Source: Escherichia coli
GTDB lineage: Bacteria > Pseudomonadota > Gammaproteobacteria > Enterobacterales > Enterobacteriaceae
Strand: one strand, 5' to 3'
Length of the DNA: 64,000 bases
Assembly: GCF_024298765.1 (NCBI RefSeq)
Contig: NZ_CP101210.1
The notes under the pieces were generated by a model. It was given only the letters and a program-made list of their open reading frames with translations. It ran no database searches and was not told the origin of the DNA. The position numbers and the translations under genes are program-made. Positions 16,230-41,850 of the stretch are shown here, in pieces (the first letter of the stretch is position 1; each line of letters starts with the position of its first letter).

Positions 16230-16320
16230 CTTTTGTAGGCCTGATAAGACGCGGCAGCGTCGCATCAGGCATTGTGCTCGATTGCCGGATGCGGCGTGAA
16301 CGCCTTATCCGGCCTGGATG
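16230..16320. repeat. REP/BIME-type extragenic palindromes
   Basis: gcctgataagacgcg...cgcatcaggc and gccggatgcggcg...cgccttatccggcc palindromic units between convergent hybG and yghU. Confidence 0.7.
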
Positions 16321-21114: not shown

Positions 21115-21807
21115 CTAGTGATAACCACGCGCGGTCATAAAATCCGTAATCGCTTTTTCTGCATCAACCAGCACCTTTTCCAGTGGCTGATTGGCGTCGA
21201 TATCAACCAGTTGTGCACCGCCAAAGGTTAACTGTGGCGTTATGGCAATCTTCCTCGCCAGCGATTCCCGTTTATGGTCGGGTTTACGCGCGCAGGCAAC
21301 TTCAAGGTCAACATTGAGTTTGATGACCAGATCAGGCTTATGGCTCGCCATCCAGTGAAATGCTTTACGTTCCTGGCTTGCCAGCCATGAGACAAACCGG
21401 CCGCCTTCAACGTTAGGTGGGAACACCGTACCATCGTAAGCGCCAGGAATTTGGTCCTGAGGATAACGATCGGTTAAGACAATCAGCCCGCGACGACGAC
21501 AGGCGAGCATATGACGAAAGCGTAACAGTCGGCGGGCGACGAAAGCGGTGATCACCAGGGCCGGAACCGGACCCGGCAATTTTTTTGCCGTTTTCACTTC
21601 ATTTTTTTCAATAGTCTTGTGCAGAGACTTTCCCATCAACGGTAATTTTGTCACTGCACGACCGACATTTCCGGCCTGTTTTCCTAAATGAACTCTTTCG
21701 GCAGCACCATATTTTTCGACAACGGTAATAAGATGTTCACACACCGTTGACTTGCCTGAACCATCGCTACCAATAACGGCAATTAATGGAGGTGTTATTG
21801 ACTGCAT
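21115..21807 (-). CDS. yghT: P-loop NTPase-like protein (paralog 1 of 3)
   Basis: 230 aa; Walker [10 protein letters not shown]; shares DRYPQ and ARKPDH motifs with yghS and yghR. Confidence 0.8.
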
Positions 21808-21980
21808 GAATATATCCTTAAATTTAAATATCCATCCAAAATATTTATTTGATTAATATGTTTTTATGAAAGCGTAATTCAGGTTAATGTCACAATTAAC
21901 CATTGTCACAATAAGGTTGAACGGATATTCTGAGCACGGACCACGTAATATTCAATACATTATTTGCTGCCGGGTTTTTC

Positions 21981-22694
21981 GTGAATCAACGTAATATGTC
22001 AATAATTAATTCCACGCCAGTGCGTGTTATTGCCATTGTAGGATGTGATGGTTCAGGTAAATCGACCCTCACGGCAAGCCTGGTAAATGAACTGGCAGCA
22101 ACAATGCCAACAGAACACATTTATCTCGGGCAATCGTCCGGGCGAATTGGCGAATGGATTTCACAGCTCCCTGTTATTGGCGCACCTTTTGGGCGTTATC
22201 TGCGAAGTAAAGCGGCACATGTGCACGAAAAGCCCTCCACACCACCTGGCAATATTACTGCGCTGGTTATCTATCTGCTTTCCTGCTGGCGGGCGTACAA
22301 GTTTCGCAAAATGTTGTGTAAAAGCCAGCAAGGCTATCTGCTCATCACCGACCGCTACCCGCAGGTTGAAGTGCCGGGTTTTCGCTTTGATGGCCCGCAA
22401 TTGGCAAAAACCACGGGCGGTAACGGTTGGATAAAAATGTTAAGGCAGCGCGAGCTGAAGCTGTACCAATGGATGGCGTCTTATTTGCCCGTATTGTTGA
22501 TTCGTCTTGGCATTGATGAACAAACCGCGTTTGCGCGTAAACCTGACCACCAACTGGCGGCGTTACAGGAAAAAATCGCCGTTACGCCGCAACTGACATT
22601 TAATGGCGCAAAGATCCTTGAACTGGATGGTCGGCAACCCGCCGATGAAATTCTGCAAGCGTCACTACGCGCAATTCACGCCGCGCTTTCCTGA
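21981..22694 (+). CDS. yghS: P-loop NTPase-like protein (paralog 2 of 3)
   Basis: 237 aa from GTG (ATG alternative at 21996); Walker A GCDGSGKST. Confidence 0.8.
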   Translation: MNQRNMSIINSTPVRVIAIVGCDGSGKSTLTASLVNELAATMPTEHIYLGQSSGRIGEWISQLPVIGAPFGRYLRSKAAHVHEKPSTPPGNITALVIYLLSCWRAYKFRKMLCKSQQGYLLITDRYPQVEVPGFRFDGPQLAKTTGGNGWIKMLRQRELKLYQWMASYLPVLLIRLGIDEQTAFARKPDHQLAALQEKIAVTPQLTFNGAKILELDGRQPADEILQASLRAIHAALS

Positions 22695-22725
22695 TCACCA
22701 AAATGGATAGGGGATGATTTAACGA

Positions 22726-23484
22726 ATGGACGCACTACAAACACAAACTGTTAATAGTACAACCGCGCCGCAGCCCAACTACATTCCGGGGCTGATTGCG
22801 GTGGTCGGGTGTGATGGCACCGGTAAATCCACACTGACCACCGACCTGGTGAAATCGCTGCAACAACACTGGCAAACCGAGCGGCGCTATCTGGGGCTGC
22901 TCTCGGGCGAAGACGGCGACAAAATCAAACGATTGCCGTTGGTTGGCGTCTGGCTCGAACGGCGACTGGCGGCCAAATCCTCGAAAACCCAAAGCATGAA
23001 AACCAAATCTCCAGCGCTATGGGCGGCGGTGATTATGTACTGCTTCTCGCTGCGAAGAATGGCGAATCTACGCAAGGTTCAGCGACTGGCGCAAAGTGGC
23101 GTTCTGGTGGTCAGCGATCGCTTCCCGCAGGCTGAAATTTCGGGCTTTTATTATGACGGACCGGGGATCGGCGTCGAACGTGCGACCGGGAAAATCAGCA
23201 TGTTTCTGGCGCAGCGCGAACGGCGTTTATACCAACAAATGGCGCAATACCGTCCTGAATTAATCATTCGTTTGGGGATTGATATTGATACTGCCATCTC
23301 CCGCAAGCCTGACCATGACTATGCCGAGCTGCAGGACAAAATCGGCGTCATGTCGACGATTGGCTATAACGGCACAAAAATTCTTGAGATTGATTCCAGA
23401 GCGCCCTACAGCGAAGTGCTGGAACAGGCACAGAAGGCGGTTTCTCTGGTTGCCATCGTTTCTGACCGCCGAAGTTTAACTTAA
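22726..23484 (+). CDS. yghR: P-loop NTPase-like protein (paralog 3 of 3)
   Basis: 252 aa; Walker A GCDGTGKST; DRFPQ; SRKPDH. Confidence 0.8.
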   Translation: MDALQTQTVNSTTAPQPNYIPGLIAVVGCDGTGKSTLTTDLVKSLQQHWQTERRYLGLLSGEDGDKIKRLPLVGVWLERRLAAKSSKTQSMKTKSPALWAAVIMYCFSLRRMANLRKVQRLAQSGVLVVSDRFPQAEISGFYYDGPGIGVERATGKISMFLAQRERRLYQQMAQYRPELIIRLGIDIDTAISRKPDHDYAELQDKIGVMSTIGYNGTKILEIDSRAPYSEVLEQAQKAVSLVAIVSDRRSLT

Positions 23485-23529
23485 GGCTGGCGGGATACTT
23501 TTTACTATCAACGATAAGGTCAGGCTGAA

Positions 23530-24879
23530 TTGGCGGGTTTTAACATCAAACATTGGTTTGCAGATGGCGCGTTTCGCACCATTATTCGCAATAGCGCCTG
23601 GTTAGGCTCCAGTAATGTCGTGAGCGCTTTGCTGGGTCTGTTGGCGCTCTCGTGTGCCGGTAAAGGGATGACGCCCGCCATGTTTGGCGTACTGGTGATT
23701 GTACAATCGTACGCCAAGTCGATCAGCGATTTTATTAAGTTTCAGACATGGCAGCTGGTGGTTCAGTACGGAACACCAGCATTAACCAACAATAATCCGC
23801 AGCAATTCCGCAATGTCGTCTCATTTTCCTTCTCGCTGGATATCGTCAGCGGCGCGGTGGCGATTGTCGGCGGCATTGCCTTACTCCCTTTTCTTTCCCA
23901 TTCATTAGGTCTGGATGACCAAAGCTTTTGGCTGGCAGCGCTGTATTGCACGCTCATTCCTTCAATGGCTTCCTCCACGCCGACCGGCATTCTGCGTGCG
24001 GTAGATCGCTTCGATCTAATTGCTGTACAGCAAGCGACGAAACCTTTTCTGCGCGCAGCGGGGAGCGTCGTTGCCTGGTATTTTGACTTTGGTTTTGCGG
24101 GTTTTGTTATTGCCTGGTACGCCTCGAATCTTGTTGGCGGCACCATGTACTGGTGGTTTGCCGCACGTGAATTACGCCGCAGAAATATCCATAACGCGTT
24201 CAAATTGAATCTGTTTGAGTCTGCCCGACACATCAAAGGCGCGTGGAGTTTTGTCTGGTCAACCAACATTGCCCATTCCATCTGGTCGGCGCGTAATTCG
24301 TGCAGCACAGTGTTGGTGGGGATCGTGTTAGGACCCGCTGCCGCCGGGTTATTTAAAATCGCCATGACATTCTTCGACGCCGCCGGAACGCCAGCGGGTT
24401 TACTGGGCAAAAGTTTTTACCCAGAGGTGATGCGTTTAGATCCGCGTACCACCAGACCGTGGTTGTTAGGCGTGAAGTCAGGTTTACTGGCGGGCGGAAT
24501 CGGTATTCTGGTGGCGCTCGCGGTGTTGATTGTCGGCAAGCCGCTCATTTCGCTGGTGTTTGGCGTTAAGTATCTCGAAGCGTATGACCTGATTCAGGTG
24601 ATGCTGGGCGCAATTGTGATCTCGATGCTGGGCTTCCCTCAGGAGTCATTGCTATTGATGGCGGGAAAACAGCGCGCTTTTCTCGTGGCGCAAACCATCG
24701 CCTCAATCGGCTACATCGTATTGCTGTTCATGTTCTGTCATCTGTTTGGCGTGCTGGGAGCAGCGTTTGCTTATTTCGGTGGTCAATGTCTGGATGTGGT
24801 GCTTTCGCTAATTCCGACCTTAAAGGCATTTTTTCAGCGCCATTCCTTGCTTTATAACGCAGCCGGAGAGAAATCCTGA
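23530..24879 (+). CDS. yghQ: MOP/Wzx-like multi-pass membrane flippase-family protein (start uncertain)
   Basis: Long hydrophobic ORF; first in-frame ATG at 23668; frame open upstream to TTG at 23530. Confidence 0.65.
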   Translation: MAGFNIKHWFADGAFRTIIRNSAWLGSSNVVSALLGLLALSCAGKGMTPAMFGVLVIVQSYAKSISDFIKFQTWQLVVQYGTPALTNNNPQQFRNVVSFSFSLDIVSGAVAIVGGIALLPFLSHSLGLDDQSFWLAALYCTLIPSMASSTPTGILRAVDRFDLIAVQQATKPFLRAAGSVVAWYFDFGFAGFVIAWYASNLVGGTMYWWFAARELRRRNIHNAFKLNLFESARHIKGAWSFVWSTNIAHSIWSARNSCSTVLVGIVLGPAAAGLFKIAMTFFDAAGTPAGLLGKSFYPEVMRLDPRTTRPWLLGVKSGLLAGGIGILVALAVLIVGKPLISLVFGVKYLEAYDLIQVMLGAIVISMLGFPQESLLLMAGKQRAFLVAQTIASIGYIVLLFMFCHLFGVLGAAFAYFGGQCLDVVLSLIPTLKAFFQRHSLLYNAAGEKS

Positions 24880-25703
24880 TGATGAGAAAATATTTCCCGC
24901 TAGAGGCGAGCGAGCGTCTATTTGTTGCGATTGAAGAAGATGATGTCGTTGATGCACAGGTCAGTTTGCCGCCGACTATCGCACTAAGTTGTACCACCGA
25001 AATCATCCATGATAATTACGCGTTATGCCTGCAATTCTGGCTCAATGGCGTCAATCGCCAGGAGTTACTGCGTTTAATATGCAAACAGGCCAAAGGCGAT
25101 GAGCTGACTGCTGATGAGCGCAAACAATTTAAATACATGCGAGCGCGCTACAAGCACCTGCGTTTTGCGCAACGGCTGTATTTAAAGAAGCATCAGGCCG
25201 GATTTTTATTCGGCAAAACGACCGTTTTTTTGGGGCGTTTTCAGGACGGCTTTCGTAACGGTAAGAAAAATATTGTGTCGTATTACGGCAACCTGTTACG
25301 GGTTTATTTAAGCTCTCCGGTCTGGTCGTTGGTGAACTATTCATTACGCCATAGCCAGTTAGAAAGCGTAAGCGGTTTTATTGCCTATCGGCAAAAGCAA
25401 ATGCATACCCTGAAAGAGATAATTGCCAAACCGCGACTAACCGGCAGGGAATTTCATGATGTGCGAAAAATCATCAGCCAGCAGGTTTCTTATTACGACA
25501 CCCTAAGATCGCTTGATCCTGAAAATAAAGAAGCGTTACAGATTTCCCGCTTCCTCGCCGCCATTAATGGCCTGATGGGGGATAAACACGACGACATGGT
25601 GGCGGATGATATGGAAAACCGCCAGTCGTATGATGCACCGATGGCGCTGGATAGCGATATTCGCCAGCGCTTAGAACTGCTGATTTCGCGTTTTCCGCTA
25701 TAA
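24879..25703 (+). CDS. hypothetical cytoplasmic protein, 274 aa (island gene)
   Basis: ATG overlaps yghQ stop (TGATG); GGAGAG RBS at 24865-24870; no domain recognised. Confidence 0.6.
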   Translation: MMRKYFPLEASERLFVAIEEDDVVDAQVSLPPTIALSCTTEIIHDNYALCLQFWLNGVNRQELLRLICKQAKGDELTADERKQFKYMRARYKHLRFAQRLYLKKHQAGFLFGKTTVFLGRFQDGFRNGKKNIVSYYGNLLRVYLSSPVWSLVNYSLRHSQLESVSGFIAYRQKQMHTLKEIIAKPRLTGREFHDVRKIISQQVSYYDTLRSLDPENKEALQISRFLAAINGLMGDKHDDMVADDMENRQSYDAPMALDSDIRQRLELLISRFPL

Positions 25704-25711
25704 CCGGAGCA

Positions 25712-26275
25712 ATGATGTCATCTCGTTTGATTATTGCGCTGATTATCATGCTCTTAGCCCCGGGTGTGCAGGCACACAATTTCGTCACTGGCAAAACGGT
25801 TACCCCCGTTTATATCCAGGAAGGCGGCGAGCTGCTTCGGAATAGCGACGACGAAATTCACTACCAAAAGTGGAACAGCACCCAATTGGCGGGAAAAGTT
25901 CGCATTATTCAGTATATCGCCGGGCGTAAGTCGGCGAAGAAAAAGAACTCACTGTTAATTAAAGCAGTTGAAGCGGCAAACTTTCCGCAGGATCGTTTTC
26001 AGCCCACCACCATTGTGAACACTGATGATGCCATCTTTGGTACCGGCTATTTTGTCGTTGGCAAAATCGAAAAAAATAAACGCCGCTATCCATGGGCGCA
26101 ATTCGTTATTGACGGCAATGGACAGGGACGCGTTGCCTGGCACTTGCAGGAGCAGAGTTCAACCATTCTGGTGCTGAATAAAACCGGGCAAATTCAGTGG
26201 GCAAAGGACGGCAGCCTGACGCCGGAAGAGGTAGATCATGTCATTGCGCTGGCGCAGAAGCTGATCAATGAATAA
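25712..26275 (+). CDS. YtfJ-family secreted/periplasmic protein paralog
   Basis: 187 aa; signal peptide MMSSRLIIALIIMLLAPGVQA; strong resemblance to E. coli YtfJ as recalled (KVRxxQHIAGR, TTIVNTDDAI, VQWAKDGxLTPEEV). Confidence 0.65.
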   Translation: MMSSRLIIALIIMLLAPGVQAHNFVTGKTVTPVYIQEGGELLRNSDDEIHYQKWNSTQLAGKVRIIQYIAGRKSAKKKNSLLIKAVEAANFPQDRFQPTTIVNTDDAIFGTGYFVVGKIEKNKRRYPWAQFVIDGNGQGRVAWHLQEQSSTILVLNKTGQIQWAKDGSLTPEEVDHVIALAQKLINE

Positions 26276-26304
26276 AAATTCAAAGGATTGAGGGCGTTAG
26301 TGAG

Positions 26305-27375
26305 ATGAAGCTGGTTGAACACTACATCATGCGTGGTACGCGCCGTCTGGTGCTGATTATCGTCGGTTTTCTGATCTTTATTTTCGCCAGCTACTCCGCA
26401 CAGCGTTATCTGACCGAAGCGGCAAATGGGACATTAGCTCTTGATGTTGTGCTGGATATCGTTTTCTACAAAGTGCTGATTGCACTGGAGATGTTGTTAC
26501 CTGTTGGACTGTATGTGTCAGTTGGCGTGACGCTAGGGCAGATGTATACCGACTCGGAAATTACCGCTATCTCTGCGGCGGGGGGCAGTCCGGGACGCTT
26601 GTACAAAGCCGTTCTTTATCTGGCGATACCGCTAAGTATTTTTGTCACCCTTCTGTCGATGTATGGTCGTCCGTGGGCTTATGCGCAGATTTATCAACTG
26701 GAGCAACAGTCACAGTCGGAGCTGGATGTTCGCCAGTTGCGGGCAAAGAAATTTAACACTAACGATAACGGACGAATGATCCTTTCGCAGACGGTTGATC
26801 AGGATAATAATCGCCTGACTGATGCGCTGATTTATACTTCTACTGCTAATCGAACCCGCATTTTCCGCGCCCGTTCGGTTGATGTGGTTGACCCATCACC
26901 TGAGAAACCGACCGTTATGTTGCATAACGGGACCGCCTATCTTCTCGATCATCAGGGGCGTGACGACAACGAACAGATCTACCGTAATCTGCAATTACAT
27001 CTGAATCCGCTGGATCAAAGCCCTAACGTCAAACGCAAAGCAAAATCGGTCACGGAGCTGGCGCGCTCCGCCTTTCCTGCCGATCATGCCGAACTGCAAT
27101 GGCGACAAAGCCGTGGCCTGACAGCATTGTTGATGGCGCTGCTGGCCATTTCATTAAGTCGGGTAAAACCGCGGCAAGGGCGATTTTCAACGTTATTGCC
27201 ACTGACGTTGCTGTTTGTTGCCATTTTTTATGGCGGCGACGTCTGCCGTACGCTGGTGGCTAACGGCGCGATTCCCCTCATTCCTGGTTTGTGGTTAGTA
27301 CCCGGACTCATGCTAATGGGCCTGCTGATGTTGGTCGCACGCGACTTCTCTTTGCTGCAGAAATTTTCCCGATGA
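26305..27375 (+). CDS. LptF-like permease (YjgP/YjgQ family) paralog
   Basis: 356 aa; 6-TM pattern with large periplasmic loop; YTDSEIT and KPRQGRF motifs resembling LptF. Confidence 0.7.
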   Translation: MKLVEHYIMRGTRRLVLIIVGFLIFIFASYSAQRYLTEAANGTLALDVVLDIVFYKVLIALEMLLPVGLYVSVGVTLGQMYTDSEITAISAAGGSPGRLYKAVLYLAIPLSIFVTLLSMYGRPWAYAQIYQLEQQSQSELDVRQLRAKKFNTNDNGRMILSQTVDQDNNRLTDALIYTSTANRTRIFRARSVDVVDPSPEKPTVMLHNGTAYLLDHQGRDDNEQIYRNLQLHLNPLDQSPNVKRKAKSVTELARSAFPADHAELQWRQSRGLTALLMALLAISLSRVKPRQGRFSTLLPLTLLFVAIFYGGDVCRTLVANGAIPLIPGLWLVPGLMLMGLLMLVARDFSLLQKFSR

Positions 27376-28451
27376 ATGTTTTCAGTCGCTATTTAATCCG
27401 TCATCTCTTTCTCGGTTTTGCCGCCGCCGCAGGGCTATTGCTGCCGCTTTTTACCACCTTCAACCTGATTAACGAACTGGATGATGTCAGCCCGGGTGGT
27501 TATCGCTGGACTCAGGCGGTGCTGGTGGTGCTGATGACCTTACCGCGCACACTGGTCGAACTTTCGCCGTTTATCGCCTTATTGGGAGGGATTGTCGGCC
27601 TGGGGCAGTTATCGAAAAACAGTGAGCTTACCGCCATTCGCAGCACGGGGTTTTCTATCTTCCGTATTGCACTGGTGGCGCTGGTTGCCGGGATATTGTG
27701 GACTGTTTCATTAGGCGCGATAGATGAGTGGGTGGCGTCGCCATTGCAGCAACAGGCGCTGCAAATCAAATCGACTGCCACTGCGTTGGGGGAGGACGAT
27801 GACATTACCGGCAATATGCTGTGGGCCAGGCGTGGTAATGAATTTGTGACGGTGAAATCGCTGAACGAGCAGGGCCAGCCGGTGGACGTGGAGATATTTC
27901 ATTACCGCGATGATCTCTCGCTCGAATCCTACATTTATGCGCGCAGTGCTACCATTGAAGACGACAAAACGTGGATCCTGCATGGTGTGAATCATAAAAA
28001 ATGGCTGAATGGCAAAGAAACGCAGGAAACATCTGATAATCTTCCCTGGCAATCGGCCTTCACCAGTATGAATCTTGAAGAGTTATCGATGCCGGGAAAT
28101 ACTTTTTCTGTCCGTCAACTTAATCATTACATCCATTATTTGCAGGAAACCGGGCAACCCAGCAGCGAATACCGCCTTGCACTGTGGGAAAAACTGGGAC
28201 AACCCATCTTGACCCTGGCGATGATTTTGCTGGCTGTGCCGTTTACCTTTAGCGCCCCGCGTTCGCCTGGGATGGGTAGCCGTCTCGCTGTAGGCGTCAT
28301 CGTTGGCTTACTCACCTGGATCAGCTATCAAATCATGGTCAATCTGGGATTGTTATTTGCGTTGAGCGCACCTGTTACCGCGCTCGGTTTACCGGTAGCG
28401 TTTGTGCTGGTGGCGTTGAGCCTGGTGTATTGGTATGACAGACAACATTAA
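27372..28451 (+). CDS. LptG-like permease (YjgP/YjgQ family) paralog
   Basis: ATG at 27372 overlaps upstream stop (ATGA); MNVFSRYLIRHLF N-terminus typical of LptF/G family; 359 aa. Confidence 0.7.
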   Translation: MNVFSRYLIRHLFLGFAAAAGLLLPLFTTFNLINELDDVSPGGYRWTQAVLVVLMTLPRTLVELSPFIALLGGIVGLGQLSKNSELTAIRSTGFSIFRIALVALVAGILWTVSLGAIDEWVASPLQQQALQIKSTATALGEDDDITGNMLWARRGNEFVTVKSLNEQGQPVDVEIFHYRDDLSLESYIYARSATIEDDKTWILHGVNHKKWLNGKETQETSDNLPWQSAFTSMNLEELSMPGNTFSVRQLNHYIHYLQETGQPSSEYRLALWEKLGQPILTLAMILLAVPFTFSAPRSPGMGSRLAVGVIVGLLTWISYQIMVNLGLLFALSAPVTALGLPVAFVLVALSLVYWYDRQH

Positions 28452-28485
28452 ACCCGCCGTGGCGCAACACCACAGCGGGCTCACA

Positions 28486-29658
28486 TTACTGCTTCAGAGT
28501 AGCAAATGCCTGAATGATGGCATCGATTTGCTCACGACTGTGGGCAGCGTTTACGCTACAGCGCAGCAGCGTGATGCCTGCAGGCGCGGCAGGTGGCAGG
28601 ATAAGATTCACATAAACGCCCAGCGAAATAAGCTCGCGCCAGATGCGTAAACCTTCCTCTTTCGAACCGATTATTACTGGCACTACCGGGCTAATATGTG
28701 AACTTAACTCATAACCCAGTTTTTGCAGACCGTCATACAGATGGTTGGCGTTATCCATCAGTTTTTGCCGCAGCTCTGGTTGTGTGGAAATGGTTCTTAA
28801 CGACGAGCGCACGGTCGCAATGCAGGACGGAGAAGGAGAGGCGGTAAAAATATACGGGCGGCTGCCGTAGCGCAGCACTTCCATCGCTTCTGAACCCACG
28901 GCAAAACCACCAATGGAAGCCAAACTTTTACTGAAGGTGCCGACGATAATATCCACGTCGTCTTCAACGCCAACGGCTTCAACCAGTCCGCGGCCTGTTG
29001 CGCCTAACACGCCAAACGAATGTGCTTCATCGACAATCAAATAACCACCGAGACGACGTTTGATATCAACAATTTCTGCCAGCGGCGCAACGTCACCGAG
29101 CATACTGTAGATGCCTTCAACGATAATAATCGCCTCTTTCGCCCGTTCACCGAGGCGGACCATGCGCCGTTCCAGATCGTTGACGTCATTATGGCGGAAA
29201 CGAATAATCTCTGCGCCGCCGAGAGAACAGGCGTCATAAATACTGGCGTGGCTGTCGGCATCCAGTAACACCACGGCGTTATGGTCGGCAAGTGCGCTGA
29301 TGACACCTAAATTAGCGGTATAACCGGTTGAAAAAACGATAGCGGTAGGGCGATTGAAAAACTCGGCAATCTCTTTCTCTAACGCCAGATGCGGCGCATA
29401 ACTGCCGTTTGCCATACGAGAACCGGTGGTGCCAGTGCCTTGGGCCGCTAACGCTGCCTGACCTTCGCGGATAGCATCATGATTAAAGGTTAAACCGAGA
29501 TAATTATTGGTCCCGGCCAGAATCACTTTTTTATTGCCGATCCGGCCTTCGGTGGCGGAATACACTTCATCAATACAGGTGCCAAATGGTGTTAACCCGT
29601 TGTCACTAAATTGCAGGCGCTCGCCAGCAAGGCGCGCATATTTATCGTATAGCCCCAT
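28486..29658 (-). CDS. alpha-oxoamine synthase, serine palmitoyltransferase-like (PLP-dependent)
   Basis: 390 aa; DEAHSFG and GTFSKSLAS motifs (Lys244 codon at 28927-28929) typical of SPT/KBL/AONS family. Confidence 0.75.
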   Translation of the reverse strand: MGLYDKYARLAGERLQFSDNGLTPFGTCIDEVYSATEGRIGNKKVILAGTNNYLGLTFNHDAIREGQAALAAQGTGTTGSRMANGSYAPHLALEKEIAEFFNRPTAIVFSTGYTANLGVISALADHNAVVLLDADSHASIYDACSLGGAEIIRFRHNDVNDLERRMVRLGERAKEAIIIVEGIYSMLGDVAPLAEIVDIKRRLGGYLIVDEAHSFGVLGATGRGLVEAVGVEDDVDIIVGTFSKSLASIGGFAVGSEAMEVLRYGSRPYIFTASPSPSCIATVRSSLRTISTQPELRQKLMDNANHLYDGLQKLGYELSSHISPVVPVIIGSKEEGLRIWRELISLGVYVNLILPPAAPAGITLLRCSVNAAHSREQIDAIIQAFATLKQ

Positions 29659-29906
29659 TATTTATTCTCCAGCCATGGAAGTAGAGTTTCCATTAATTGC
29701 GCAGGGGTTTTGACATCCAGCAGAATATTAATAGGAATGGAAATATCGAATCTGTCTTCCAGCATCATTAAGAGATCCATCACTTTGATCGACTCCAGGC
29801 CAAGATCGTTGACGAGATCGCTGTCGGGCTTAATTTCCACACCGTTTTCGACCAAATCCTGTAAACAGGAAAGGATGTAATCCATTACTATTTCACGATT
29901 TACCAT
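29658..29906 (-). CDS. dedicated acyl carrier protein
   Basis: 82 aa; DLGLESIKVMDLLMMLEDRF helix-2 region with candidate phosphopantetheine Ser; stop overlaps AOS start (TAATG). Confidence 0.65.
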   Translation of the reverse strand: MVNREIVMDYILSCLQDLVENGVEIKPDSDLVNDLGLESIKVMDLLMMLEDRFDISIPINILLDVKTPAQLMETLLPWLENK

Positions 29907-29937
29907 AGAAACGTTAACACACCTTTAAACAAGACAA

Positions 29938-30852
29938 TCAAAATAGCCCGTTGCGTAATGCGTGTTCCAGGCTAATCCCGGGAAACCAATTAATATCTTC
30001 AGAAATACGGTTATTATTTGCCGACCAGTCGGCGTGGGTTAATTCACGAATTTTCGAGCGGGTCAGCATAGGTTCTTTACCTGCCAGGCGACTCAACGCA
30101 GTACTGATATCCGCAAGGCAGGTGAGTAGCGGCAGAGGAATGCCAACCATCCGCACAGAACCACAACGGGCTTCGGCGGCAAGCTGTCGTACGCGTTGCC
30201 AGTCATAGCCGCCAGCGACGCCATCGCATAATTCATAGGTTTGCGTCTGTACAGTTTCGGCGTTTAACCACTGACCCACTGCTTGCGCAAAATCGGTGAC
30301 GTGCAGGAAAGAGAGTTGTGTATCTGGCGCACCAAGTCGTGGCAGCAGGCCGCGCAGCATCCAGTCAAACAGCGGTTTTAACTCTTTATCGCCGGGACCA
30401 TACACGGCTGTCGGGCGAAAAATGCCCAGCGTAATTTCGTCAGCCATTGCGATCAGTCGTTGTTCGGCGACGTGTTTGGAATTTGCGTACCAGGAGAGTT
30501 CGGGATGGCGCGCCGCCAGCGAAGAGATAAACAGAAAACGTTGGCAAAAGCCGCTCTCTTTTGCCGCTTGCATCAGGCGCAGGCTGCCGTCAACGTTACA
30601 GCGGGTAAAAATCTCTTCTTTGTGTCCGCGCACTTGTCCGGCGCAATGGACCACCGCGCTGGCTCCGGCAACCAGTTCGCTAAGCGAATGTGTATCTTCC
30701 AGCGAACCGCGCACCCAGATGAGATTATCATTGACGTGAGCGCGGGCAGTACGCGTCAATGTGCGAACGTGAAAGCCGCGGGCGAGCAGGTTATCGATAA
30801 TATATTTACCGATAAACCCGGTAGCGCCCGTCACCGCGACAGTTTGATTCAT
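29938..30852 (-). CDS. NAD(P)-dependent epimerase/dehydratase-fold reductase
   Basis: ATG at 30852 (MNQTVAVTGATGFIGKYI), 304 aa; YANSK catalytic dyad; track ORF has an N-terminal extension overlapping the upstream gene. Confidence 0.7.
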   Translation of the reverse strand: MNQTVAVTGATGFIGKYIIDNLLARGFHVRTLTRTARAHVNDNLIWVRGSLEDTHSLSELVAGASAVVHCAGQVRGHKEEIFTRCNVDGSLRLMQAAKESGFCQRFLFISSLAARHPELSWYANSKHVAEQRLIAMADEITLGIFRPTAVYGPGDKELKPLFDWMLRGLLPRLGAPDTQLSFLHVTDFAQAVGQWLNAETVQTQTYELCDGVAGGYDWQRVRQLAAEARCGSVRMVGIPLPLLTCLADISTALSRLAGKEPMLTRSKIRELTHADWSANNNRISEDINWFPGISLEHALRNGLF

Positions 30853-32573
30853 GCCAGGGATTCCTGCACATGAAGGCTTGCAGCATAAGCCTTCTGATAA
30901 CGTTTTTTCGCTTCCGCACGGGCAGGCTTGCCGGAGGACGTTCGGGGAATACTGTGGGGCGGCAACAGATCGATAGCCGCGGTCACGCCAAATTCGCTTT
31001 GGATCCGTGCTACCAGTGCGTGGATAAGCTGCCCACGACGTTCTTCGTCGCTGATCCGACACTGGATCTGCAAAATGATTTTTTCCTGGGCGGTAACAAA
31101 AGCAATCGCATCGCCAGAATGAATTTCCGGTTCCTGTTCCGCAATGTATTCAATATCCTGCGGCCAGATATTACGGCCACGAATAATAATCAGATCTTTA
31201 ATGCGTCCGGTGACATACAGATAACCGTCCAGCAGATAACCGAGGTCGCCGGTGTCTAACCAGCCCGTCGCGGCAATCTCGTCTTGCGAAACCTGGTCGC
31301 CAAAGTACCCGCTCATCAGGCTGGGGCCGGAGATGCAAATATGGCCTACCACACGTTCCGCGACAGGTATATCTGCTTCATTGCGGATTTCAATGCCATG
31401 TTCCGGCAACGCTTTACCGCAGTTGACGAAAGTCGATACGGCGCGTGTTTCAGCACCCGGCGCGACGGCTTTACCCTGGTATTCGAGGATGTCGCGATCC
31501 ACTTCGTTAACCACAACCCCGCAGGCTTCATCAGAGAAGCTGACAGCCAGCGCATTTTCTGCCAGTCCGTAGCACGGCATGAAAGTTTTATCGTCAAAGT
31601 TAACCTGACGAAAACATTCAGCGAATTGATGGAGTTGTTCTGCGGAGATCGGTTCTGCTCCAATACCAGCGACGCGCCAGCAGGAAAGATCCAGTTCAGC
31701 GAGATCTTTTTCATTCACGCGGCGCTGGCACAATTCATAGCCAAACGGCGGTGCAACGGAAACGGTGCCGCGATTTTTACTGATCAATTTAAGCCATTGC
31801 AGAGGACGCATGGCAAAATCCTGAGTGCGCAAATAATCTACTGAAAGCTGCGTGGCGACGGGGGTCAGGAGAAAGCCGACCAGTCCCATATCATGGTAGA
31901 AAGGCAGCCAGGAGACGCAGCGGTCGCCAGGGCGTAATTTAATGCCATCGTGGCTTATAGCACGTAGATTAGCCATCACTTCGTGATGGGTGATAATGAC
32001 GCCACGGGGAAAACGGGTGCTGCCGGAGGTGTACTGGAGGTAGGCGATATCGTTCGGAACTGGACGCTGGAGCGCAACATCGGCTTCCGGTAATGCCTTA
32101 AACCAGGCGTGGCTTAAAACATGTAATTCGGGGTTGTTGTTATGCGTCGCGGCATTGACCAGCGGTAACCACTCATCACCAGTGATAATGGCTGCGGGCT
32201 GGCAACTTGCCAGTAAACCCTGCAGTTTGGCGCTCCAGGAATCCCGCTGACCGACGCCCATTGGAATCGCCAACGGGACGGCGACTAAGCCGGCACACTG
32301 GCAGGAAAAAAAAGCCTCTACAAACCCGCTACTCGTTTCGGCAATCAGCGCCACGCGATCGCCTTTTTTCAGGTTCAGCGATAACAACCGCTTCGCACCA
32401 GCTTCGGCACGCGCTTTTAACGTCTGATATTCCAGTTGATCTTCAAGTTGGCAACGTCTGTCATAAAAATTCATTCCGGCGCTACTCAGAGCGGCGTAGT
32501 CCAAAGCATCAACCAGCGTTGGAAAATCGGCATAGCGCATAGGTAGGGAATGCGTAAAGATTTTATTAGACAT
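30849..32573 (-). CDS. fatty acyl-AMP ligase / acyl-ACP synthetase-like adenylating enzyme
   Basis: About 574 aa from ATG at 32573; YTSGSTRFPRG core motif; GRIKDLIIIRGRNIWPQDIE; stop overlaps next start. Confidence 0.7.
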   Translation of the reverse strand: MSNKIFTHSLPMRYADFPTLVDALDYAALSSAGMNFYDRRCQLEDQLEYQTLKARAEAGAKRLLSLNLKKGDRVALIAETSSGFVEAFFSCQCAGLVAVPLAIPMGVGQRDSWSAKLQGLLASCQPAAIITGDEWLPLVNAATHNNNPELHVLSHAWFKALPEADVALQRPVPNDIAYLQYTSGSTRFPRGVIITHHEVMANLRAISHDGIKLRPGDRCVSWLPFYHDMGLVGFLLTPVATQLSVDYLRTQDFAMRPLQWLKLISKNRGTVSVAPPFGYELCQRRVNEKDLAELDLSCWRVAGIGAEPISAEQLHQFAECFRQVNFDDKTFMPCYGLAENALAVSFSDEACGVVVNEVDRDILEYQGKAVAPGAETRAVSTFVNCGKALPEHGIEIRNEADIPVAERVVGHICISGPSLMSGYFGDQVSQDEIAATGWLDTGDLGYLLDGYLYVTGRIKDLIIIRGRNIWPQDIEYIAEQEPEIHSGDAIAFVTAQEKIILQIQCRISDEERRGQLIHALVARIQSEFGVTAAIDLLPPHSIPRTSSGKPARAEAKKRYQKAYAASLHVQESLA

Positions 32574-32600
32574 ATACACCACGAAAAAATTGGATATCAA

Positions 32601-32943
32601 AAATAAAATGACAATAATGCGGTGGATTATATAGGCATAAAAGATAAATGAGATAGTATTTTCATCAGTGTGAAAATGAACATTGATTTAAATAATGAGT
32701 TTGAGTTTTTTTGTTTTTATTGTGAATGATATTTAATTTATGAATATATTAAGAAGAAGCCTTGTCCGGTCGCCTTAAATCGACAAAAGGCATTGTGGCG
32801 CTTCTGTGTAGTCTCTGACCTTATCGTAATCATTAATAATACTATTTATTCGTCGTTTGTATTCATTGGGTTGATTGTTAAGGTGCCGTTCGTTGCTGTT
32901 GCAACCTGTTTGTCACCGTTAATTATTTGTTACCCACAGAACT
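32601..32943. promoter_or_regulatory. AT-rich divergent intergenic region (promoters for lipid operon and yghO)
   Basis: About 340 bp markedly AT-rich with A/T tracts, flanked by divergent start codons. Confidence 0.5.
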
Positions 32944-34086
32944 ATGGAATGCGATCTGCTGATGATTAAAATTGAAAAAGTAATTAATAAAAATGACCTT
33001 AAGGCATTTATCGCTTTTCCGTCATCACTTTATCCCGACGATCCAAACTGGATACCCCCTTTATTCATTGAACGCAACGAGCATTTGTCTGCGAAAAATC
33101 CGGGGACGGACCATATCATCTGGCAGGCGTGGGTGGCAAAAAAAGCGGGGCAGATAGTTGGGCGTATTACCGCGCAAATCGATACCTTGCACCGCGAGCG
33201 TTACGGCAAAGATACCGGTCATTTCGGCATGATTGACGCCATTGATGATCCGCAGGTTTTTGCCGCGTTGTTTGGCGCAGCGGAAGCGTGGTTGAAGTCA
33301 CAAGGTGCAAGTAAGATCAGCGGTCCTTTCAGCCTGAATATCAATCAGGAAAGCGGATTACTGATTGAAGGTTTCGATACACCACCCAGTGCGATGATGC
33401 CACACGGTAAACCGTGGTATGCCGCGCATATTGAACAACTGGGTTATCACAAAGGCATTGATTTACTGGCGTGGTGGATGCAGCGAACCGATCTCACTTT
33501 CTCTCCGGCGCTAAAAAAACTGATGGATCAGGTGCGCAAAAAAGTGACCATTCGCTGCATCAATCGCCAGCGGTTTGCCGAAGAGATACAGATCCTGCGT
33601 GAGATTTTCAATTCTGGCTGGCAGCACAACTGGGGATTTGTGCCGTTTACCGAACATGAATTCGCGACCATGGGCGATCAACTTAAATATCTGGTGCCGG
33701 ACGATATGATCTACATCGCTGAGATTGATTCTGCACCCTGCGCGTTTATTGTTGGCTTGCCGAACATCAACGAGGCGATTGCCGATCTGAACGGATCGCT
33801 CTTTCCCTTCGGCTGGGCAAAATTGCTGTGGCGTTTGAAAGTCAGCGGTGTGCGAACTGCGCGAGTGCCGCTGATGGGCGTGCGGGACGAGTATCAGTTC
33901 AGCCGCATCGGCCCGGTAATTGCGCTGTTATTGATTGAAGCCTTACGCGATCCGTTTGCCCGTCGGAAGATCGATGCGCTGGAGATGTCATGGATCCTCG
34001 AAACCAATACAGGCATGAATAACATGCTGGAACGCATTGGGGCGGAGCCGTACAAGCGTTACCGATTGTATGAAAAGCAGATTTGA
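32944..34086 (+). CDS. yghO: GNAT-fold acyltransferase-like protein (uninterrupted reading frame)
   Basis: 380-aa ORF from ATG 32944 (alternative ATG 32962); divergent from lipid operon. Confidence 0.65.
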   Translation: MECDLLMIKIEKVINKNDLKAFIAFPSSLYPDDPNWIPPLFIERNEHLSAKNPGTDHIIWQAWVAKKAGQIVGRITAQIDTLHRERYGKDTGHFGMIDAIDDPQVFAALFGAAEAWLKSQGASKISGPFSLNINQESGLLIEGFDTPPSAMMPHGKPWYAAHIEQLGYHKGIDLLAWWMQRTDLTFSPALKKLMDQVRKKVTIRCINRQRFAEEIQILREIFNSGWQHNWGFVPFTEHEFATMGDQLKYLVPDDMIYIAEIDSAPCAFIVGLPNINEAIADLNGSLFPFGWAKLLWRLKVSGVRTARVPLMGVRDEYQFSRIGPVIALLLIEALRDPFARRKIDALEMSWILETNTGMNNMLERIGAEPYKRYRLYEKQI

Positions 34087-34092
34087 TGGCAG

Positions 34093-34857
34093 TCACCCCT
34101 GCTTCATCTCCAGCGGCACCGCCGAGCGAATCAAATGGTGGCCTTCCAGCTCGATATCGTGGAGATTCTTTTTCACGGTCCGCACATGATCACGTGCTGC
34201 GCGCTGGGCGACGTGCGGCAGCCGCTGCAACACCGCGTTGTAGATCCGCGCATGCTGGCGATCGATCTGCTTTTTTTGCTGTGGTCGATGGTAGAGATTA
34301 TTTACGCTGGCAAACACTGAATTAAACATCAGATCGGTCAATGATTGCAGCGTAAACACCAGCACCTGATTGTGAGAAGCCTGACAAATGGCGAGATGGA
34401 AAGCGTGATCCAACTGCGCATGTTCGATCAGCGAAATCTCTTTGTTGTTCTCACTGGCGGCGAGCATTTTTTCATAACAGCGGGTTATCACAACAAAATC
34501 AGCCTGGGTTCCCAGCGTTGCCGCCAGCCTTGCCGATTCGCCCTCCAGTAATGCGCGAACGTCGAGCAGATCGTACAGCGTTCGCGGCTGCGTACTGAAC
34601 AGATGGATCAGCGGGCTGGCGTCCTGCACCCGATTAAGCCGTGCGACACGAGAATCGCGACCCTGCGCCGTTTCAATAATCCCGCGCCCGCGCAGCACGG
34701 TCAGCCCTTCACGCAGTGCGGAGCGTGAGAAGCCGAGCTTTTCACACAGTCGACGTTCCGAGGGAAGCGGCTGACCGACCTTCAACACGCCGTCGATAAT
34801 TAACCGTTCGATACTCTCTGCAACCACTTCGCAAATAGGGCGACGTTCATCTTTCAT
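34093..34857 (-). CDS. glcC: GntR-family glycolate operon activator
   Basis: ATG (MKDERRPICEVVAE) at 34857, 254 aa; N-terminal wHTH, FadR-like C-terminal domain. Confidence 0.85.
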   Translation of the reverse strand: MKDERRPICEVVAESIERLIIDGVLKVGQPLPSERRLCEKLGFSRSALREGLTVLRGRGIIETAQGRDSRVARLNRVQDASPLIHLFSTQPRTLYDLLDVRALLEGESARLAATLGTQADFVVITRCYEKMLAASENNKEISLIEHAQLDHAFHLAICQASHNQVLVFTLQSLTDLMFNSVFASVNNLYHRPQQKKQIDRQHARIYNAVLQRLPHVAQRAARDHVRTVKKNLHDIELEGHHLIRSAVPLEMKQG

Positions 34858-41495: not shown

Positions 41496-41850
41496 TAGCG
41501 TCAAAAAAAGCCCCGGCAAGATTTATTGTCGGGGCTATGATAGTAACTGCGGTAGTACATTTATCCCGGAAATAACCGGAGCGATTATCAGGGGTTAACA
41601 ATATTAAATACCCGTAGCGCATCACTAGCGGGATTAAAACAACAATATGGACATCTTAACGATACTCTGCGCCTGCGTGTGCGGAACAGAAACCCTTACC
41701 CGATATACTTGTTATGCCAGAGGTAGCAATTGCGTTAGCGGCGTACTGTTGCTGTAAAGTATAACGCCTATATTTTACAGTTCAGTCCTCTTTTGCTTAT
41801 TACAACCTTAAGTATATCAAGCATATAAAGATAATAAGAGACTGAACAAT

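Follow-up and report, generated by a model that had tools for sequence, protein, structure and literature searches.

The four genes between positions 28,486 and 32,573 of the DNA analysed here, a 64,000-nucleotide stretch of the Escherichia coli chromosome (RefSeq assembly GCF_024298765.1, contig NZ_CP101210.1; hereafter the window), are very probably the aasR-epi(cerR)-acpR-spt operon of this species, which stands at the start of the bacterial ('rhodobacterial') sphingolipid pathway. An earlier note, made from the letters of the sequence alone, had predicted that a fatty acid is adenylated by a ligase, loaded on a dedicated acyl carrier protein (ACP) and condensed by a synthase, and published work on the same E. 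coli genes reports these steps (PMC8460268, PMC9386255). That interpretation is supported, and the system is already known, both in its biochemistry (gene functions, ACP loading, condensation) and in RefSeq annotation, where the gene name spt is already in use. All four open reading frames are found at the positions given in the note; they follow one another on the minus strand in the order ligase, reductase, ACP, synthase:

30849..32573, minus strand: aasR / EcFAAL, fatty acyl-AMP ligase (acyl-AcpR synthetase), 574 residues, matching NCBIfam NF006624 and PDB 3PBK
29938..30852, minus strand: epi / cerR-like reductase of the extended short-chain dehydrogenase/reductase (SDR) type, 304 residues, recognised by its motifs and its BL21 homologue ECD_02852
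29658..29906, minus strand: acpR, dedicated acyl carrier protein, 82 residues, recognised by identity to BL21 ECD_02853
28486..29658, minus strand: spt, serine palmitoyltransferase (SPT), 390 residues, NCBIfam equivalog NF047599

We propose that the pathway begins with AasR (= EcFAAL), which would adenylate a free fatty acid and transfer the acyl group solely to the phosphopantetheine arm of AcpR, because its CoA pocket is blocked. Palmitate served as the substrate in Caulobacter enzyme assays (PMC9386255). Spt, a pyridoxal phosphate (PLP) enzyme, would then join acyl-AcpR to L-serine with decarboxylation, giving 3-oxo-sphinganine. The product of the divergently transcribed yghO, a homologue of the bacterial ceramide synthase bCerS/Aca, would N-acylate this base, and the SDR reductase would reduce the 3-keto group, either before or after that acylation. 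The first two steps have been shown experimentally for near-identical E. coli proteins; the two later ones we infer from their Caulobacter homologues and from the way the genes cluster.

The ligase carries the adenylation-core motif YTSGSTRFPRG at residue 181 and a second motif, GRIKDLIIIRGRN, at residue 456, both of which the earlier note had singled out. It passes the NCBIfam fatty acyl-AMP ligase (FAAL) model NF006624 (861 bits against a cutoff of 600) and falls below the cutoff in every NCBIfam acyl-CoA ligase model. When aligned with PDB 3PBK ('Fatty Acyl-Adenylate Ligase'), all 574 residues match at about 98% identity (1276 bits), with one single-residue gap at query N146; across residues ~350-390 the match is gapless and near-identical, showing that the FAAL-specific insertion is present. 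In EcFAAL this insertion, which lies between the N- and C-terminal domains, blocks acyl-CoA formation (PMC8460268, PMC11837247). EcFAAL moves the acyl-adenylate to holo-EcACP and rejects CoA, and a structural reason for the rejection of CoA by FAALs has been given (Patil et al., 2021, eLife; PMC8460268). The orthologous AasR of Caulobacter acylates neither CoA nor AcpP, and AasR_Ec serves its own AcpR, not that of Caulobacter (PMC9386255). The ACP-loading assay that the note had proposed as a check has already been published twice on near-identical E. coli proteins (PMC9386255, PMC8460268), and the case it had named as refuting, a ligase that makes acyl-CoA and leaves the ACP unloaded, is excluded by the published EcFAAL/AasR assays.

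The ligase is identical to BL21(DE3) ECD_RS14830 at 548 of 562 aligned residues (97.5%), and the starts annotated in RefSeq differ between strains, giving 574 residues here and 562 in BL21. The window ligase is the crystallised EcFAAL (PDB 3PBK), and EcFAAL and AasR_Ec are one protein with two names, an identity that we consider worth stating. A FAAL review of 2025 mentions neither sphingolipids nor AasR (PMC11837247); two literatures therefore name one protein differently.

The carrier protein is of the PP-binding type, with Ser39, in DLGLES(39)I, as its phosphopantetheine serine. It is best read as a divergent, specialised carrier and not as AcpP, because it gives only sub-threshold ACP family matches: it falls below the cutoff in all housekeeping ACP models of NCBIfam, reaching at most 35.6 bits against 71. 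The protein is identical to BL21 ECD_02853 in all 82 of its 82 residues, and this AcpR_Ec carries a 4'-phosphopantetheine group and can be labelled with beta-alanine (PMC9386255). The position of acpR directly 5' of spt, with aasR nearby, is the tripartite AasR/AcpR/Spt arrangement of the 'Rhodobacteria'. In Hafnia alvei, a gene for a 4'-phosphopantetheinyl transferase (PF01648; 5011-5736) adjoins the yghO homologue, which suggests a dedicated AcpR activator in that organism; none lies beside the E. coli module.

The synthase passes the SPT equivalog NF047599 with 598.6 bits against a cutoff of 500 and remains below the cutoffs of the BioF, Kbl, ALAS and CqsA-type models of NCBIfam. Its closest solved structures are the SPTs of Sphingomonas (2JG2, E 1e-111), with which its active-site residues align: TFSK(244)S, containing the PLP lysine, DSH(137)AS, D(210)EAH(213)S and LLR(366)CS. 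Because of this homology to 2JG2, the enzyme would be an SPT of the soluble homodimer type. The BL21 synthase, ECD_02854, is identical at 384 of 390 residues (98.5%). In vivo co-expression of AasR_Ec, AcpR_Ec and SPT_Ec yields 3-oxo-sphinganine, and SPT_Ec strongly prefers acyl-AcpR over acyl-CoA or acyl-AcpP (PMC9386255).

The reductase shows the signature of an extended SDR, a TGxxGxxG NAD(P) site with an S...YxxxK catalytic set. The TGATGFIG and YANSK motifs on which the earlier note relied lie at residues 8 and 122, and FISS lies at 108 (Ser ~109-110). In NCBIfam the protein has only weak, sub-threshold matches to epimerase/reductase families (HpnA/OleD-type), and its best PDB relatives are NDUFA9-type subunits/proteins and NAD-dependent epimerases; Caulobacter CerR is likewise NDUFA9-like (PMC11087976). 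BL21 ECD_02852 is identical at 290 of 304 residues (95.4%, 14 substitutions) and is itself 34% identical to Caulobacter CC_1164 (CCNA_01222; E 7e-38, 94% coverage; PMC9386255 Table S2), and orthologues of 63-77% identity occur throughout Enterobacterales. By analogy with Caulobacter, the E. coli reductase may carry out the 3-keto reduction, a role that has been suggested for it (PMC9386255). Its N-terminus opens straight on the Rossmann strand (MNQTVAVTGATGFIG), with no space for a classical signal peptide. The open reading frame does extend in frame upstream to a GTG at 31062 (29938-31062, minus strand), and in some annotations (for example that of E. coli S88, protein P0003) the reductase has 374 residues and would overlap the ligase by 210 nucleotides. 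We rejected this GTG-initiated form; the GTG start is not conserved, and the 304-residue ATG start is the one kept in relatives.

The arrangement of the four genes suggests one operon, with the following features:

30849..30852, minus strand: ATGA stop/start overlap of ligase and reductase, read directly from the sequence
29656..29660, minus strand: TAATG stop/start overlap of ACP and SPT, read directly from the sequence
28449..28483: 16-bp hairpin with 9 GC between the convergent spt and lptG2, directly after the synthase stop, from a terminator scan
32574..32943: 370-bp divergent intergenic region between aasR and yghO, 68% A+T, read from the sequence

Both stop/start overlaps claimed in the earlier note are present. 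The ligase/reductase junction reads ...CTGGCATGAATCAA, where the ligase stop TGA spans 30851-30849 and the reductase ATG spans 30852-30850; the ACP/synthase junction reads ...AATAAATAATGGGG, with the ACP stop TAA at 29660-29658 and the synthase ATG at 29658-29656, an overlap of one base. The reductase/ACP spacer is 31 nucleotides long and includes AAAGGTG. Such overlaps are frequent in bacterial operons and, taken alone, are unremarkable and no proof of coupling. Among relatives, Citrobacter amalonaticus and Hafnia alvei retain the ATGA, in place of which Erwinia sorbitola has a 4-nucleotide gap; the ACP/SPT overlap is 14 nucleotides in all three, and the spacer before the ACP is similar in the same three (~30 nucleotides, with AGGT). 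Terminator-like sites inside the operon do not exceed the shuffled expectation (7 against 5.8 expected in a consensus scan of 28300-33000). Overlaps or short spacers are thus kept in relatives, and the window operon shows no internal terminator above chance. Because of the stop/start overlaps and the lack of internal terminators, these data would indicate a single transcript with tightly linked translation.

The hairpin at 28449-28483 is likely the operon terminator, and the region 32574-32943 is presumably where the promoter lies. A promoter consensus scan of 28300-33000 gave counts no higher than in shuffled sequence, with no convincing sigma-70 match and no assignable promoter; among the promoter and terminator sites scanned for, the hairpin behind spt alone stood out. 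When the whole window was scanned with Rfam, no RNA element matched within the operon or beside it.

The gene on the far side of the intergenic region supplies the candidate for N-acylation:

32944..34086, plus strand: yghO, homologue of the Caulobacter N-acyltransferase / bacterial ceramide synthase CC_1154, recognised by identity to BL21 and from Table S2 of PMC9386255

YghO is identical to BL21 YghO (ECD_02850) at 378 of 380 residues (99.5%), and the BL21 protein is 44% identical to CC_1154 (E 1e-107; PMC9386255 Table S2). No Pfam or NCBIfam model matches it.

Several points weigh against the assignment of the operon to a working sphingolipid pathway. The literature searched reported no native sphingolipid of E. 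coli or other Enterobacteriaceae; it yielded reviews on other matters and studies of heterologous expression. Empty-vector controls of BL21(DE3) made no 3-oxo-sphinganine despite the chromosomal cluster (PMC9386255), and by this result the operon seems silent under laboratory conditions. Loss of the operon from K-12 carries no known consequence. The roles of the E. coli reductase and of YghO would follow from Caulobacter homology, not from enzyme assays. Finally, the order of reduction and N-acylation is itself disputed from the Caulobacter work: the Geiger group draws 3-keto reduction before N-acylation (PMC9386255), and the Klein group finds that a cerR mutant accumulates oxidised ceramide and that CerR is at the periplasmic face, which places acylation first (PMC11087976).

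This dispute leads to the alternative that survives best. In it, YghO acts first, in the cytoplasm, by N-acylating 3-oxo-sphinganine; the oxidised ceramide is then flipped to the other side of the membrane, and the NDUFA9-like reductase, not being a 3-ketosphinganine reductase, reduces it at the periplasmic face, in the order that the Klein group gives for Caulobacter. The build-up of oxidised ceramide upon deletion of Caulobacter cerR, together with the periplasmic, inner-membrane-associated location of CerR (PMC11087976), argues for such an order, as do the NDUFA9-like nature of the window reductase and the genes for a MOP flippase-like protein and LptF2/G2 alongside the operon. Set against this, the N-terminus of the E. 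coli reductase is too short for a classical signal peptide, and the periplasm is without free NAD(P)H, a difficulty raised by the Caulobacter authors themselves (PMC11087976). Furthermore, SPTs expressed in BL21 gave spots that migrated like sphinganine and ceramide, which the authors credit to ECD_02852 and ECD_02850 (PMC9386255). We regard this late, periplasmic reduction as a real possibility, to which we give somewhat less than even credence.

Over the 10.6-kb stretch 23500-34100, identity to thousands of complete E. coli genomes is 95-100%, and the four-gene operon, scored as present at a coverage of at least 80%, occurs in 4067 of 5426 complete E. coli genomes, nearly always on the chromosome. 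In K-12 MG1655 (3130146-3131340), an IS5 lies between yghO and a truncated yghQ, and all in between is gone: the spt operon, lptF2/G2, and the ytfJ-like and 274-residue genes. All genes are under purifying selection, with dN/dS of 0.04-0.20 against BL21 and 0.02-0.24 against Citrobacter. Over the operon (28486-32573), most E. coli genomes are 96.7-97.4% identical to the window and 95 records are at least 99% identical; dS between BL21 and the window is 0.08-0.16. These values suggest that the operon falls into at least two allelic lineages of some depth in E. coli. A 467-kb plasmid of Rahnella aquatilis (CP042359.1, 392602-396665) carries the four-gene operon at 71% DNA identity, a hint of a route by which the module moves among Enterobacterales.

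The operon is embedded in a larger module, within a chromosomal context of pitB-yghTSRQ ... yghO-glcCDEFGB. RefSeq gives the order from the flank to the synthase as pitB, yghT, yghS, yghR, 'lipopolysaccharide biosynthesis protein' (the yghQ-type MOP flippase), a hypothetical protein, a YtfJ-family protein, lptF, lptG and spt, and onward from spt as acyl carrier protein, NAD-dependent epimerase/dehydratase, fatty acyl-AMP ligase, yghO, glcC and glcD. The module itself comprises 13 genes in the order yghO, aasR-red-acpR-spt, lptG2-lptF2-ytfJ-like-274aa-MOP flippase-yghR-yghS, yghT, and it is conserved in Citrobacter, Hafnia and Erwinia at differing chromosomal contexts with the same aasR-red-acpR-spt order. 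Its further members are:

21115..23484: yghT (minus strand), yghS (plus strand) and yghR (plus strand), three paralogues resembling P-loop nucleoside monophosphate (NMP) kinases, kept with the module in three genera
23530-24879, plus strand: yghQ-type MOP flippase, from the open reading frame list and RefSeq
24879-25703, plus strand: 274-residue protein with no detectable domain, from the open reading frame list
25712-26275, plus strand: YtfJ-family secreted protein, from the open reading frame list and a family search
26305-27375, plus strand: lptF2, TIGR04407, 319.8 bits against a cutoff of 230
27372-28451, plus strand: lptG2, TIGR04408, 310.1 bits against a cutoff of 240

LptF2 and LptG2, whose genes overlap by 4 nucleotides, are second copies of the lipopolysaccharide (LPS) exporter permeases and, by analogy, a candidate sphingolipid exporter; the Caulobacter LptF2/G2 of sphingolipid loci are needed for sphingolipid transport and bind LptB (bioRxiv 10.64898/2026.04.12.717747). 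RefSeq calls the window genes lptF and lptG ('LPS export ABC transporter permease'), their scores being above the NCBI equivalog cutoffs. This naming is probably an over-annotation, the genes being by context the sphingolipid-locus paralogues LptF2/G2. The flippase, 274-residue and YtfJ-like genes are kept beside the operon in Citrobacter, Hafnia and Erwinia. The 274-residue protein, which matches no Pfam or NCBIfam model, is conserved at 274-281 residues in each of the four genera, always between the flippase and YtfJ-like genes, and its start overlaps the flippase stop.

YghR, YghS and YghT are candidate head-group or lipid kinases. We did not adopt the RefSeq label 'dTMP kinase' given to part of this set, since their scores against the dTMP-kinase models, 25-31 bits, are far under the cutoff of 83. 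YghS has no sequence relative among solved structures. An assignment as CpgB-type ceramide kinases was rejected as well, CpgB being of the LCB5/DAG-kinase family and not a P-loop NMP kinase. The Caulobacter head-group genes (e.g. that for the LCB5-type ceramide kinase CpgB) have no counterpart in the window, and the head group of any mature E. coli sphingolipid probably differs from that of Caulobacter. Beyond the module, Rfam matches in the window are the C0719 small RNA downstream of glcB (41551-41772, minus strand; 294 bits) and, at 16238-16314, the naRNA4 (CssrE) nucleoid-associated RNA / REP-type element, which matches on both strands.

We put forward a tentative proposal, possible but on balance doubtful: the operon may be the front end of the 13-gene module, with which about three quarters of E. 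coli strains would natively make a sphingolipid not yet described and send it to the outer membrane under non-laboratory conditions, the head group perhaps being modified by YghR/S/T and export perhaps proceeding via LptB2F2G2.

The opposite view, that the cluster is a cryptic and essentially unexpressed remnant, competent when over-expressed and yielding no physiologically relevant lipid, strikes us as unlikely. It is in keeping with the empty-vector result in BL21(DE3) (PMC9386255), with the absence of the operon from K-12 and about 25% of complete genomes, and with the 68% A+T of the upstream region, which is typical of silenced loci, although the link here is our own. On the other hand, the reading frames are intact in 4067 genomes, and dN/dS is 0.04-0.2 among E. 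coli and 0.02-0.24 in the comparison with Citrobacter. Enterobacterales also keep all 13 genes of the module together in differing chromosomal contexts, and the operon is found on a Rahnella megaplasmid.

It is quite improbable that the synthase natively makes another alpha-oxoamine from a different amino acid or short acyl group, such as a deoxy-sphingoid, a capnine-like compound or a signalling aminoketone, with no sphingolipid pathway involved. The crystals of EcFAAL with C12 and C14 acyl-adenylates (PMC11837247) are compatible with this idea, as are the relaxed substrate specificity that a section heading of PMC9386255 gives for rhodobacterial SPTs and the fact that no native product has been observed so far. 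Nevertheless, SPT_Ec put L-[14C]serine into a product that co-migrated with 3-oxo-sphinganine (PMC9386255), the synthase scores above the SPT equivalog cutoff and under those for BioF, Kbl, CqsA-type and ALAS enzymes, and homologues of ceramide synthase and CerR are clustered with it. Lastly, although the Caulobacter, E. coli and Sphingomonas SPTs form a minor product from palmitoyl-CoA in vitro (PMC9386255), the notion that the ligase is an ordinary acyl-CoA synthetase and that the synthase uses acyl-CoA like eukaryotic SPT, with the ACP irrelevant, can be dismissed: it is ruled out by the NCBIfam scores, the match to 3PBK with its FAAL-specific insertion and the published rejection of CoA, and contradicted by assays in which EcFAAL loads holo-ACP and FAALs reject CoA (PMC8460268), Caulobacter AasR acylates neither CoA nor AcpP, and SPT_Ec strongly favours acyl-AcpR (PMC9386255).

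The main use of this analysis is that it confirms the soundness of the earlier note's reasoning from sequence alone; it adds no discovery. Most natural E. coli carry an intact sphingolipid module under purifying selection, and K-12 is without it. What retains value is the native lipid, its regulation and the part it may play in virulence or gut life, along with the substrate and location of the reductase.

Among known systems, the closest is that of BL21(DE3), ECD_02850-ECD_02854, in which Padilla-Gomez et al. (2022, Front Microbiol; PMC9386255) named aasR (ECD_02851), epi (ECD_02852), acpR (ECD_02853), spt (ECD_02854) and aca, which is yghO (ECD_02850). Locus, order and flanks (glcC-yghO; lptG2) are the same, and the proteins are 95.4-100% identical; the differences are allelic only (~3% of the DNA, the 14 reductase substitutions, a one-codon difference in ligase length and the RefSeq ligase start). 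EcFAAL (PDB 3PBK; Zhang et al., 2011) shares the fold, the FAAL-specific insertion and an alternative phosphopantetheine pocket, whereas the FAAL literature consulted treats it as a generic FAAL. In Caulobacter crescentus, CC_1162-CC_1165 and CC_1154 (spt, acpR, epi/cerR, aasR, aca/bcerS) cluster the same five enzyme types, with acpR directly upstream of spt; there, too, LptF and LptG have second copies (LptF2/G2, with LptC2), and a flippase, CC_1166, is present. However, identity is just 34-44% for the reductase, ligase and acyltransferase, and AasR_Ec does not serve the Caulobacter AcpR (PMC9386255). The E. coli window is also without CpgABC-type head-group genes and LptC2, and has instead the YtfJ-like, 274-residue and YghR/S/T P-loop proteins.

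The eukaryotic SPT-KDSR-CerS pathway likewise proceeds from serine and an acyl thioester to 3-ketosphinganine, followed by reduction and N-acylation. It differs in its acyl-CoA donor, its membrane-bound heteromeric SPT and its unrelated KDSR and CerS, where E. coli has an ACP-bound acyl donor, an NDUFA9-like reductase and an SPT predicted to be of the soluble homodimer type. The FAAL-polyketide synthase couples of mycobacteria (e.g. FadD32-Pks13) similarly pass an acyl-adenylate to the phosphopantetheine arm of a carrier and not to CoA. In E. coli, by contrast, the acceptor is a stand-alone ACP, and the acyl group goes to a PLP-dependent alpha-oxoamine synthase, not to a polyketide synthase.

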